Shown here one piece after another: positions 1-3,000 of a DNA stretch of 33,521 nucleotides (its first letter is position 1; every line of letters begins with the position of its first letter). The stretch spans positions 1 to 33,521 of the forward strand of contig CAIVDX010000740.1 in assembly GCA_903904805.1 (NCBI GenBank), written 5' to 3'. Position numbers: made by a program. This DNA is from an uncultured Rhodospirillales bacterium (GTDB taxonomy: Bacteria > Pseudomonadota > Alphaproteobacteria > Acetobacterales > Acetobacteraceae).

Positions 1-3000
1 CATCACCGAGGTGACGACGGAAATGCCGCGCTCGCGTTCGATGCCCATCCAGTCCGACCGGGTGCGGCGGCGTTCGCCTTTAGCACGCACCTGACCGGCC
101 AGCTGGATCGCGCCACCGGCGCGCAGGATGCGTTCGGTCAGCGTGGTTTTGCCGGCATCGGGGTGGGAGATGATCGCGAAGGTGCGGCGTCTTTGGATTT
201 CGCTGACCAGGTCGGTCATTGGGAAAACCTTTAAGGAAGACTTGTTCTTTTTTGAAAAAAAGAACCAAAAAACTTATGAAACCCGAGACCGTGCGGTGTC
301 ACGGGCAAACAAAAACCCCGGCCTGACGGCCGGGGTTCTCGACAGTTTTTAGCGCGAGTAGAACTCGACGACCAGGTTCGGTTCCATCTGGACCGGATAC
401 GGCACGTCCGACAGCTTCGGGGTGCGCATGAAGCGGCCCTTCATGGCGCGATGATCCACCTCGACATACTCAGGCACATCACGCTCCGCGCTCTGCGAGG
501 CATCGAGCACCATCGCCAGCTGCTTGGACTTCTCGCGAACCTCGATCTCGTCGCCATCCTTCACCAGATAGCTGGAGATGTTCACCTTCTTGCCGTTCAC
601 GGTGAGATGGCCGTGATTGACCAGCTGGCGGGCGGCGAACGGGGTGATCGCGAACTTCATGCGATACGCCACCGCGTCCAGACGACGCTCGAGCAGGTCG
701 ATCAGGTTCTCGGAGGTGTCGCCCTTGCGGCGCACGGCCTCCTCGTAATATTTGCGGAACTGCTTCTCGCTGATGTTACCGTAGTAACCTTTCAGCTTCT
801 GCTTGGCCATCAGCTGGGTGCCGAAGTCGCTGACCTTGCCCTTGCGGCGCTGGCCATGCTGGCCGGGGCCGTATTCGCGCTTGACCACCGGCGACTTCGA
901 CCGGCCCCACAGGTTCACACCCAGGCGGCGGTTGATCTTGTACTTGCTTTCGGCGCGCTTCGTCATGCGCCTCTCCTTCTTCAGTGCCGCCGGGTCCTGA
1001 TGAACCTCATGCGGGCTTGTTGCACCGGTAGGCCCCACACGAGCGTGTGGGACGGGCGCGCACCCCGGAGGTACGTCCACGTTCCCGGCAATGCGGTGGC
1101 TCTATCGGGGGGAGGGGCTCTTGTCAAACCAACCCTGCCCTGCCACGTGCGCGCCCATGATCAAACGCAGTGACATTATTCTGCTGGGGCTGAACGCGGC
1201 GGTGATCGGCTCACTGACCGGCGGCCTGCTGCTCGGCATCGGCCTCGGCCTGGTGGTCAATCGCGTGGAGGCCGGCTGGCTGCTGGTGTTGCCGGCCGCG
1301 CCCGTCGCCGGGCTGATCGGCATCGTGCTGGCCCGGCGCACCGCCCGCAAGCTGGCGGACGGCGCGCCCGCCAGCGGTTAACGGCGTTCAGTTGGCCATC
1401 GCCATCGCCTGCGCCTCGACCGCCGCGTGGTCGAAGTCATTGCACTTGTCGGTGAACTTCGTGGTGTAGCCAACCTCGGCCGGCTTGGTGCCCTTCAACG
1501 CGCCGGACTTCACATAGATCTCCCGCGTCAGCTCCCAGGCGGCCGGATTGATGGCCCCGGTCTCCTTGCCCGGCGGAATGCCCTTCTCGCTGGTCTCAAA
1601 CCAGCGATCCATGATGTGGCGCTGGTTCTTCATCGCGGTGGCGGTGTCGAGATTGGCGGGCTTGGTGGTGGGGAATTGCGCCCAGAACAGGCGGATCGCC
1701 GCATCGCGGTTGGCCAGCGCGAAATGCAGTCCCTTGGCGATCGCCCGGCACATGCCGGCGACCGCCTCCGGATGCGCGGCGATGAAGCGATCGGTGGTGG
1801 CGAAGCTCATCGCGGCGATCTTGTTCTGATCGGGAATCTCGATGGCGCGGATCTTCATGCCGGTGTTCTCCATCGCCCCGCGCATGCCATCCCACACCGT
1901 CAGCGCATCCAGCTGGCCGGTCTGCAGCGCGGTGAAGGCGGCGGCATTCACGCCGGAGGTGACCGCGGAATATTGATCGGGCGTGATGCCCAGGCGCAGC
2001 AGCTGGTCCTTCACCGCGAGCCCACCGCCTGAGCCGAAGGCGGCGGCGCCGATCGACTTGCCCTTCAGGTCGGCGAGCGTGCGGATCGTTGAATTCTCCA
2101 GCACGATGACGATGGAGCCGGTGTTCTGCTTCAGCGTGTAGAACACGATCGGATCGCCACCCTGTTCGCGCAGCTGCAGCACCGATTCCGGCATGGTGGT
2201 GGCGAACTCGGCCTGGCCGCTCTGCAGCCCCTGCGCCGCCGGGCCACCGCCCGACACACCCTCGATCGCCACCTCCAGCCCCTCGGCGCGGAAATATCCG
2301 AGCTGCTGCGGAACGGCGTAGAGGAACACCTCCTCGCCCACCCCAACCGCGGGGTGCATCTGCAGGAACGTCACCTTGGTGAGCTCCGCAGCGCCGGCCG
2401 CAAGCGAGGGCAACAGGCAGGAGACGGCGAGGAGAAATCGTGTGCCAAAGCGCATGGGGTATTTCCTACAGGGAGGTGAGGTCGCGCCGCTGCGCCCAGA
2501 AGCACACGCGGCGTTCGACGATGCGGACGGATTGGTTCAGCGCGAAGCCGATGATGCCCAGGATGATCAGGATCGCGAACAAGGGTGCGATTTCCATCGC
2601 CTGGTCATACTGGATCAGCAGCATGCCGAGGCCTGCACGGGCGCCGACGAACTCGCCGACGATCGCACCCAGAACGGCCAGCGCGGAGGCGACATTCAAC
2701 CCGGCGAACAGGAACGGCATGGCCGAGGGGATGACGATCTTGCGCATGATCTGCAGCGGACGGGCGTTGCAGGAGCGGGCGAGATCGAGCCGGTCAGGGT
2801 CCACCGCGTGCGAGCCGGCGAGGGCCGCGATCAGCACAGGGAAGAAGGTGATGATCGCGGTGATGTAGATCTTGCCGTTGAAGCCGAGCCCGAACCAGAT
2901 CACCAGCAGCGGGGCCAGCGCCACCTTCGGCAGGGCCTGAAATGCGATGATGAAGGGATACACACTCCGCTCCAGCCCCCGCGAGGCGCCGAAGGCGAAA

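Follow-up and report, generated by a model that had tools for sequence, protein, structure and literature searches.

The window analysed here, a 33,521-nucleotide stretch of an uncultured Rhodospirillales bacterium of the Acetobacteraceae (contig CAIVDX010000740.1), carries seven short AT-rich palindromes between its genes, and it raises the question of what these palindromes are and which of their features is under selection. A first-pass annotation had described them as a family of ~33-nt elements that it did not recognize; likewise, no description was found in the literature on the sequence or on Acetobacteraceae repeats and MITEs (miniature inverted-repeat transposable elements). The palindromes belong to a previously undescribed repeat that is spread between genes across the Acetobacteraceae and their phages. 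Its classification as an interspersed repeat similar to repetitive extragenic palindromes (REPs) and MITEs can be given with high confidence. The fuller explanation, that the end-module of this repeat is also selected as an intrastrand triplex hairpin, is the one favoured here and is considered probable, with a good deal more reserve. Proposals for what the element does are tentative.

An exact 30-mer of the element, searched against one genome per species, was found in at least 120 genome stretches. Among the matches listed almost all are from Acetobacteraceae/Rhodospirillales, including Gluconacetobacter, Roseomonas, Rhodovarius and many metagenome-assembled genomes (MAGs). The loci fetched around such matches contain 308 copies in 855 kb. 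In these loci the family is a genuine and strictly intergenic one, as first claimed; copies that fall within stop-to-stop open reading frames (ORFs) lie almost all upstream of the real start, and the few exceptions are probably mis-called ORFs. Rfam gave no matches over the whole window, and at E ≤ 1 only generic long-hairpin matches far below the gathering threshold.

The ~33-nt palindrome is real, although the conserved unit is longer, running by information content in the sampled copies from about -9 to +34 and so taking in an AAG-repeat purine flank and, beyond the tail, a T-run. This end-module (~45 nt) consists of an (NAAG)n flank (AAG-N-AAG-N purine), a 10-12 bp A/T hairpin with a GA loop and a linker of one base (C). 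These are followed by an A-tract that mirrors the purine arm of the hairpin, then a C and a T-run. The full unit of 130-155 nt is formed from two inverted modules around a 45-55 nt GC-rich hairpin, the sequence of which differs between loci. Convergent (tail-to-tail) pairs (n=58) are spaced by 65-127 nt with a mode of 82, and the 472 oriented ends divide into 230 paired and 242 solo ones. Neither this composite architecture nor the mirroring of the stem by the tail, the central finding of this report, had been noticed in the first-pass annotation.

The hairpin is perfect in 470 of 507 copies. Of the 10 pairs in its Watson-Crick stem 6 have compensatory changes, and the stem has a covariation score of 0.241 (0.102 in shuffles). 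The tail, bounded by constant Cs, is a mirror copy of the inner 3' arm, and the natural variants change in all three runs together:

5' arm T6, 3' arm A6, tail A6
5' arm T4CT, 3' arm AGA4, tail A4GA (the same with runs of 5 and 6)
5' arm T5C, 3' arm GA5, tail A5G
5' arm T3CT2, 3' arm A2GA3, tail A3GA2
5' arm TCT4, 3' arm A4GA, tail AGA4 (single copy)

An all-A arm of 5 goes with a tail of 5 and one of 7 with a tail of 7, and stems with a C-G inversion (ACA5, A3CA3 and ACA6) carry all-A tails of the matching length (7, 7 and 8). Tail length therefore equals arm length for 5, 6, 7 and 8, and the G stands at the mirrored position for p = 0, 1 and 2, where p is the number of bases by which the tail extends beyond its G. 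This mirror rule holds for every informative class with at least two copies, in the genome sample and likewise in an independent metagenome sample, and the violations are all single copies. The alternative that the tail is a shifted direct repeat of the 3' arm was rejected; it fails on the tail ending exactly p bases past its G (p = 0, 1, 2, 4) and leaves unexplained the lack of the G in all-A stems.

When the complement of the tail is set parallel to the purine arm on the pyrimidine-rich strand, 95.8% of cells are complementary over 59 distinct 30-mers. Of the four positions tested in this register three change on both sides, and one more double change occurs at a fifth. The score is 0.251 compared with 0.137 ± 0.012 in shuffles, none of 500 of which reach the observed value, and slid registers give 0.116 or less. 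The covariation of tail and arm is thus as strong as that of the Watson-Crick stem (0.251 vs 0.241). The antiparallel register shows no double-sided changes (0.102 vs 0.110 in shuffles). One pair of orthologous copies (loci L036 and L039) differs by three concerted 1-nt indels, one in each run, while the other end is identical at 41 of 41 positions and the flanks are 78% identical.

A mirror relation of this kind can be read neither by Watson-Crick pairing nor by a protein that recognizes equivalent sites, and it is for this reason taken as the signature of a triple helix. The triplets would be isomorphic across the variants, either as T.A-T / C+.G-C or as A.A-T / G.G-C. The published description of intrastrand triplexes calls for a pyrimidine, a purine and a mirror purine block, each of at least 6 nt, with loops of 1-6 nt (PMC4666352). 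The module fits this pattern, its corresponding blocks being X (T5-8), a GA loop, Y (A5-8), a loop of GAAC+C and Z, the reverse of Y. One strand would form a class IV triplex (T/U.A-T/U and C+.G-C; Hoogsteen-pyrimidine-purine) with T opposite the C-G inversion, and the complementary strand a class II triplex (A.A-T and G.G-C; pyrimidine-purine-reverse-Hoogsteen).

The same variants bear on the proposal that the palindrome is a duplex-DNA site for a dimeric regulator or a nucleoid-associated protein, such as an operator or an IHF-like or MucR/GapR-like site. A perfect AT-rich palindrome in a GC-rich genome, phased A-tracts and identity across genera are what such a site might show. However, the variants keep the complementarity of the arms and not their sequence (GTTC/GAAC, CTTC/GAAG, CTGC/GCAG, GTCC/GGAC and GCCGC/GCGGC), and the change in arm length from 9 to 12 shifts the spacing of the half-sites. 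The mirror repeat is unreadable as equivalent sites, and the majority of copies lie past stop codons, away from promoters. Compensatory and run-length changes that alter both half-site sequence and spacing do not suit the nucleoid-protein or operator role listed in the first-pass annotation, and a protein site is regarded as very unlikely.

Still less credence, close to none, is given to an RNA switch, in which the U-rich arm would pair with either the 3' arm or the tail in the manner of an attenuator, or to a short coding sequence of 11 codons. It is true that 6-7 bp are possible between 5' arm and tail in every class, and that three copies in the window start with TTG or ATG in the same frame. 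Antiparallel pairing of tail and arm lacks the double-sided changes noted above, though, and the C-G inversion classes keep an all-A tail that would break this helix, so the alternative hairpin was rejected. The short ORF was likewise rejected, as the window copies c2, c5 and c7 (listed below) have no start codon and variants of the B type shift the frame and introduce a TGA.

The closest known counterpart of the proposed triplex hairpin is found in E. coli. The BoxC/TM-ECO intrastrand triplex motifs are reportedly connected with work by Hoyne and colleagues in 2000. The resemblance of the AT-rich element to them lies in three blocks on the same strand, pyrimidine, purine and mirroring purine, joined by short loops, with class II on one strand and the pyrimidine-motif class on its complement. 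Both also occur as inverted pairs, have no linked gene or known function and coincide with local genomic variability. There is, however, no sequence similarity, the blocks of the AT-rich element being A/T-only and those of BoxC G/C-rich (CCCTCNCCC...), and the BoxC consensus, CCCTCNCCC-N3-6-GGGNGAGGG-N3-GGGNGAGGG, is not matched by the AT-rich element. Its blocks are of 5-8 nt inside a longer hairpin with an outer stem of 4-5 bp. It also has the (NAAG)n flank, forms units in which two modules flank a GC hairpin, abuts stop codons and is conserved to the base across the family and phages. Finally, the triplex register of the AT-rich element is backed by natural three-way covariation, of which the BoxC paper makes no mention. 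Intrastrand triplex motifs have been catalogued in bacteria as PIT elements (PMC4666352), and BoxC/TM-ECO is itself an interspersed intergenic repeat, also found as inverted pairs, for which triplex formation was observed in vitro (Holder et al. 2015, PMC4666352). The AT-rich element is a new, family-wide variant of this intrastrand-triplex and REP-like kind of repeat.

In the window all seven palindromes were recovered where they had been reported. The palindrome pattern has no matches in 100 shuffles of the window (0 expected), the core GAACCAAAAAAC has 6 matches against 0.54 expected, and in a window of ~65% G+C no stretch other than these elements reaches 19 of 25 A/T. An nhmmer profile built from 352 copies of other genomes recovers exactly the seven copies and no others, six with E-values of 4e-13 to 1.5e-5 and the degenerate copy (24417-24437, minus strand) with an E-value of 0.15. 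Two pairs among the seven, 6930/7052 and 24304/24438, are each the two ends of a single composite element:

233-275, plus strand, c1, solo end-module (nhmmer E 7e-12): AAG flank 233-243, 5' arm GTTCTTTTTT 244-253, loop GA 254-255, 3' arm AAAAAAGAAC 256-265, linker C 266, mirror A6 tail 267-272, C 273, TT 274-275
6906-7063, no strand assigned, complete composite unit between the ATG of the SpoU/trmJ-like gene (6903-6905, minus) and the cysS stop codon (7061-7063, minus)
6930-6965, plus strand, c2, end-module of this composite (nhmmer E 4e-13): 5' arm GTTATTTTTT 6930-6939, loop 6940-6941, 3' arm 6942-6951, linker 6952, A6 tail 6953-6958, C 6959, T-run 6960-6965
7019-7060, minus strand, c3, end-module of the same composite (nhmmer E 2.6e-11): 5' arm 7052-7043, loop 7042-7041, 3' arm AAAAAGGAAC 7040-7031, linker 7030, diverged tail AACAGA 7029-7024, C 7023, T-run 7022-7019
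9782-9824, plus strand, c4, solo end-module 8 nt past the TGA of Nramp/mntH (9779-9781; nhmmer E 9e-12): flank GAAGAATT 9782-9789, 5' arm 9790-9799, loop GC 9800-9801, 3' arm 9802-9811, linker 9812, A6 tail 9813-9818, CC 9819-9820, TTTT 9821-9824
24287-24450, no strand assigned, degenerate composite between the convergent stop codons of the MCP gene (TAG 24284-24286) and the CMD-family gene (24451-24453, minus)
24304-24335, plus strand, c5, end of the degenerate composite with a 2-nt deletion in the 3' arm (nhmmer E 1.5e-5)
24407-24438, minus strand, c6, eroded end of the degenerate composite (nhmmer E 0.15)
32981-33021, minus strand, c7, solo end-module 8 nt past the TGA of the ABC permease (33022-33024, minus; nhmmer E 8.9e-8): flank AGGCAAGC, imperfect stem GCTTCTTTTT / AAAAAGAAAC, tail CAAAAAC

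The complete composite contains the two inverted end-modules and a 51-nt GC-rich centre, and is predicted to fold as one long hairpin (-63.7 kcal/mol, z -7.7). On one side the AAG-rich flank of c2 (6906-6929, 24 nt) extends up to the ATG of the SpoU/trmJ-like gene, and on the other the flank of c3, GGAAGGAT (7060-7053), follows immediately after the TAA of cysS. The outer flank of c1 points towards the ATG of prfC (217-219, minus strand), 24 nt away, and its tail side towards the rpsD terminator. Pfam confirms the gene names given earlier (CysS, Nramp/MntH, MCP, CMD, ABC permease, SpoU methylase and S4), and the identity of prfC was read straight from the window sequence.

Comparison of orthologous junctions, one of the checks on mobility, showed gain, erosion and replacement of the element. 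Asaia bogorensis has no element at the junction of cysS with the SpoU/trmJ-like gene, and the two genes overlap there (ATGA). In the window an insertion of 155 nt lies precisely between the final cysS codon and the ATG of the SpoU/trmJ-like gene, and cysS now ends with the TAA of the element. A 77%-identical relative (L121) has a different, flank-to-flank arrangement at this position with a direct repeat, ATGAC, on both sides. Similarly, locus L080 has ~250 nt at a junction that in L088 is an ATGA overlap with 14 nt. Of the orthologous copies compared, one was intact in one genome and eroded in the other, and one was of a different subtype.

Copies are also carried by phages. Contig IMGVR_UViG_2784746772_000002 (L339), a bona fide phage, has three copies (5481-5650, 9166-9211 and 11122-11217) among the genes for tail sheath, major head, portal and terminase large subunit. 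At least two of these are composites with identical internal sequence, and all have the same orientation as the genes. From this turnover and these phage copies it follows that the family behaves as a mobile or self-propagating repeat. Among the roles that had been listed for the palindromes, that of a REP/MITE-like mobile repeat fits best, given the insertion and decay polymorphism, the copies in a phage structural operon and the inverted doublets.

Further exact 30-mer copies with the same architecture are seen in two low-GC contigs, both of 41% G+C, labelled Bacteroidales (L042) and Eubacteriales (L064). In the former the copy lies directly after a RuvB-like gene and before a GC hairpin. 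The latter has the V0 and V6 variants plus a GCCAC/GTGGC variant, each beside a conserved block ...TTGCGCAAATCGTGTTGCGTTGCAACAC. Either these are mislabelled bins of low-GC Alphaproteobacteria or the module has crossed phyla. A plasmid of Parabacteroides distasonis (NZ_CP120354.1; L202, 2503-2540) contains a module-like palindrome with A-run and T-run, GGTTCTTTTT-CGC-AAAAAGAACC-AAAAAAC-TTTG; this candidate from the Bacteroidota is palindrome-like but unconfirmed, and could be due to chance in AT-rich DNA. A match in an E. coli plasmid was set aside, as it looks like chance AT-rich similarity.

Within the mobile repeats, the AT-rich element resembles the REP, BIME and REPIN families in being a short extragenic palindrome of high copy number that occurs singly and as inverted doublets, frequently lies a short way past stop codons and is conserved between related genera. 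It differs in its A/T-only stem, its additional mirror tail and the lack of a GTAG or CGTC tag. No CGTC repeats were reported from the Acetobacteraceae by Di Nocera et al. (2013). A classical REP/REPIN mobilized by a RAYT (Y1 HUH) transposase would account for the doublets and for the conservation across related genera, and a RAYT homologue does occur in an Acetobacteraceae MAG that carries the element (L027; E 7e-52 to PDB 4ER8); its protein has no Pfam match at E ≤ 1e-5. This gene (2587-3126, in a locus spanning 2508-3172) is flanked by GC-rich GTAG palindromes of its own, placed in inverted orientation at ~2508-2545 and 3137-3172 (GTAGGGTGGGGTGC-TCTTCC-GCACCCCACCC), and the nearest AT-rich copy is ~490 nt away at the next gene junction. 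The single RAYT locus examined thus carries different REPs; an association of RAYT with the AT-rich family is rejected there, and the MAG has a classical REP/RAYT system alongside the AT-rich family. The ends of the AT-rich element are GTTC, CTTC, CTGC, GTCC or GCCGC, and only one RAYT was found in ~1.9 Mb of element-rich sequence. Mobilization by RAYT is accordingly judged improbable, only slightly less so than a protein site.

The composite also recalls ERIC/IRU, Correia (CREE/NEMIS) and MITE units. These are imperfect intergenic palindromes of ~130-150 nt, often transcribed, with a long RNA hairpin and no encoded transposase, and are present or absent at orthologous sites; ERIC also retains its sequence across genera. 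As in MITEs, the AT-rich unit is non-coding, below 300 bp, bounded by terminal inverted repeats and polymorphic for presence. The distinction from these families is drawn from features and not from sequence: the centre of the AT-rich unit is variable and only its ends are conserved, these ends are themselves palindromes with a triplex-type tail, and in the sampled loci neither a consistent target-site duplication nor a related insertion sequence (IS) accompanies it.

Several observations weigh against the favoured reading of a mobile repeat selected as a triplex hairpin. The formation of the triple helix is deduced from covariation, and because the variant classes are related by descent the number of independent covariation events is small (~6-8). 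The one-base linker between the paired outer stem (4 bp) and the third strand is geometrically tight, and single mismatches show no strand asymmetry (14 T:G vs 9 C:A). BoxC itself was found to form no stable triplex in vivo and to have no promoter or terminator activity, and was tied to local genomic variability (PMC4666352). With regard to mobility, target-site duplications are inconsistent, ATGAC being present in L121 and none at the cysS/trmJ junction of the window. No transposase or recurrent protein family was found beside the 242 solo ends in ~1.4 Mb of loci, as opposed to whole genomes, and in these loci there were no end pairs at a constant kilobase spacing and no parent IS with the same ends. 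The gene calls in the fetched loci are crude (GC3-based), and the identity of a 30-mer across genera could be a sign of some host function.

As regards the placement of the element relative to genes, the five distances from stop codon to palindrome in the window (8, 8, 17, 12 and 8 nt) are correct, as is the orientation with the gene, and a short characteristic distance in this orientation holds in 284 further copies. There is no fixed 8-nt spacer, as the distance is instead set by the 4-nt-periodic NAAG flank, which overlaps the stop codon. Stop-to-hairpin distances peak at 3, 7 and 11 nt (6 and 10 for TAG), roughly one NAAG unit apart, and the stop codon coincides with the outermost flank unit, as in T-AAG or TAG-G. 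It is the outer flank side of the module that points to the nearest gene boundary. Among stop codons beside the element 43% are TAA, compared with 14% elsewhere (TGA vs TAA+TAG, P = 7e-6). That the stop codon is an intrinsic part of the element was considered and rejected; the overlap is context-dependent, since TAAG, TAGG or TGA(A)G is found in the flank of ~35% of copies that are not behind a gene compared with 73% of those that are. In the window, the 24-nt distances to the prfC and SpoU start codons (ATG) were confirmed, although they reflect no general rule, as start distances are widely scattered in the sampled loci.

The 24 nt between element and ATG of the SpoU/trmJ-like gene contain no recognizable Shine-Dalgarno sequence (GCCTTCTCTTGCGGTCTTCTTTTG-ATG; 6903-6929), and the prfC leader (217-243, minus strand) has a weak AAAGG only. 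Any promoter of these genes must be located within the element or beyond it.

The position just past stop codons, in the orientation of the gene, raises the possibility that the element is a terminator evolved by the host. Composites would then act as bidirectional intrinsic terminators, with a GC hairpin and A- and T-runs supplied by the AT palindromes, and solo modules would be weak or factor-dependent. At the centre of the composite there is indeed a GC-rich hairpin that, read in either direction, is preceded by an A-run and followed by a U-rich stretch, and the element is found, by crude gene calls in the sampled loci, in 35% of convergent and 29% of tandem spacers, somewhat above the 19% for divergent ones. 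This last figure is itself hard to reconcile with a terminator. A GC hairpin is missing from half of the modules, the solo ones, and in composites 4-12 nt separate the U-rich stretch from the GC stem. Some units are inserted at junctions where the genes of relatives overlap (ATGA) and are presumably co-transcribed, and others lie between consecutive genes of a phage late operon; the covariation of the mirror tail is left unexplained. A consensus scan for sigma-70 promoters and terminators flagged nothing at the elements, a weak test as it also missed the obvious terminator of rpsD. The first-pass annotation was right that the module is not a canonical terminator, but one of its reasons, the lack of an adjacent U-tract, holds less well, as a T-run does follow the tail. 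Solo modules are predicted to form an A/U-only stem of -7 to -10 kcal/mol with an A-run after it, and their fold z-scores lie between -0.01 and -1.5 in the window copies, reaching -2.3 in consensus sequences. A host-evolved terminator is unlikely on this evidence, if less so than RAYT mobilization. The rpsD terminator (311-335, minus strand) is a canonical GC-rich one, CCCCGGCC-GTCA-GGCCGGGG followed by TTTTTGTTTG, and lies 8 nt past the rpsD TAA.

For the mobile repeat with a triplex hairpin the following mechanism may be envisaged. With moderate confidence, the module when single-stranded would fold as a hairpin with a third strand, an intrastrand triple helix, and this fold would be what is selected. 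More speculatively, the agent of selection may be whatever copies and homogenizes the element, acting through a structure-specific step on single-stranded DNA, and the element would then be largely selfish. In transcripts the module may form, in the manner of REPs, a hairpin roadblock a few nt past the stop codon that impedes 3' exonucleases and disturbs the ribosome as it terminates. Such a role has parallels: E. coli REPs shield the mRNA upstream of them from 3' exonucleases, and where a REP lies within 15 nt of a stop codon it reportedly lowers translation by stalling ribosomes, a result attributed to Liang, Rudd and Deutscher in 2015. The module would probably be no efficient terminator of transcription; efficient termination is argued against by the location of elements in former operon junctions and in a phage late operon.

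A somewhat different proposal, to which a minor but real chance is given, above that of the terminator, is that the triple helix is functional and is used by the cell or by the element. In one form, a U.A-U / C+.G-C triplex in the transcript would make a weak A/U hairpin a strong obstacle for 3' exonucleases or the ribosome, just past stop codons or in 5' leaders, as a bacterial counterpart of the ENE and MALAT1 triple helices delivered by a mobile repeat. The triple helices of the ENE with its A-tract and of the 3' ends of MALAT1 and MEN-beta have the order U-run, U-run, A-run, with U.A-U triplets interrupted by C+.G-C; they are found in eukaryotic or viral RNAs, and a stem-loop separates the two U-rich strands. 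The pyrimidine-rich strand of the AT-rich element has the same order of runs. In contrast to these RNAs, the element occurs in both orientations to genes, and the mismatch counts, lacking strand asymmetry, do not favour RNA over single-stranded DNA or supercoil-driven extrusion. Any role in RNA would be limited to the strand with the order U-run, U-run, A-run, because purine-motif triplexes do not form in RNA (PMC4666352). In the other form, the hairpin-triplex in single-stranded or supercoiled DNA would be the structure recognized in copying or recombination, with no transposase of a known kind.

Three further observations were made in passing. A perfect parS-like palindrome, TGTTTCACGTGAAACA, lies on the reverse strand of locus L003 in the same spacer as an element copy (offset 2513), ~85 nt downstream of it. 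In locus L052 (~6980-7120) three tandem units of ~43 nt (GCGTCCCGCTGTGCCGGGAGACGGCGGCAGCCTGAAAAAA) are found directly past the tail of an element. In the window, AT skew is strongly positive (0.22-0.33) over ~5 kb (16001-21000), far above the remainder.

REP, ERIC and BoxC repeats have been known for decades, yet the feature of them that is selected is mostly unclear. The natural variants of the AT-rich family form a record of three-strand covariation, and so offer comparative evidence, of a rare kind, that selection acts on a triple helix in bacteria. The family lends itself to study, being short, AT-only in a GC-rich genome and present in hundreds of near-identical copies, and it occurs in cultivable genera (Gluconacetobacter, Roseomonas and Rhodovarius) as well as in phages. 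For annotation it matters that stop codons come from the element, that gene pairs which once overlapped are split by it and that genes downstream of it lose their Shine-Dalgarno context. Portable parts for the control of expression in acetic acid bacteria could also be obtained from it.

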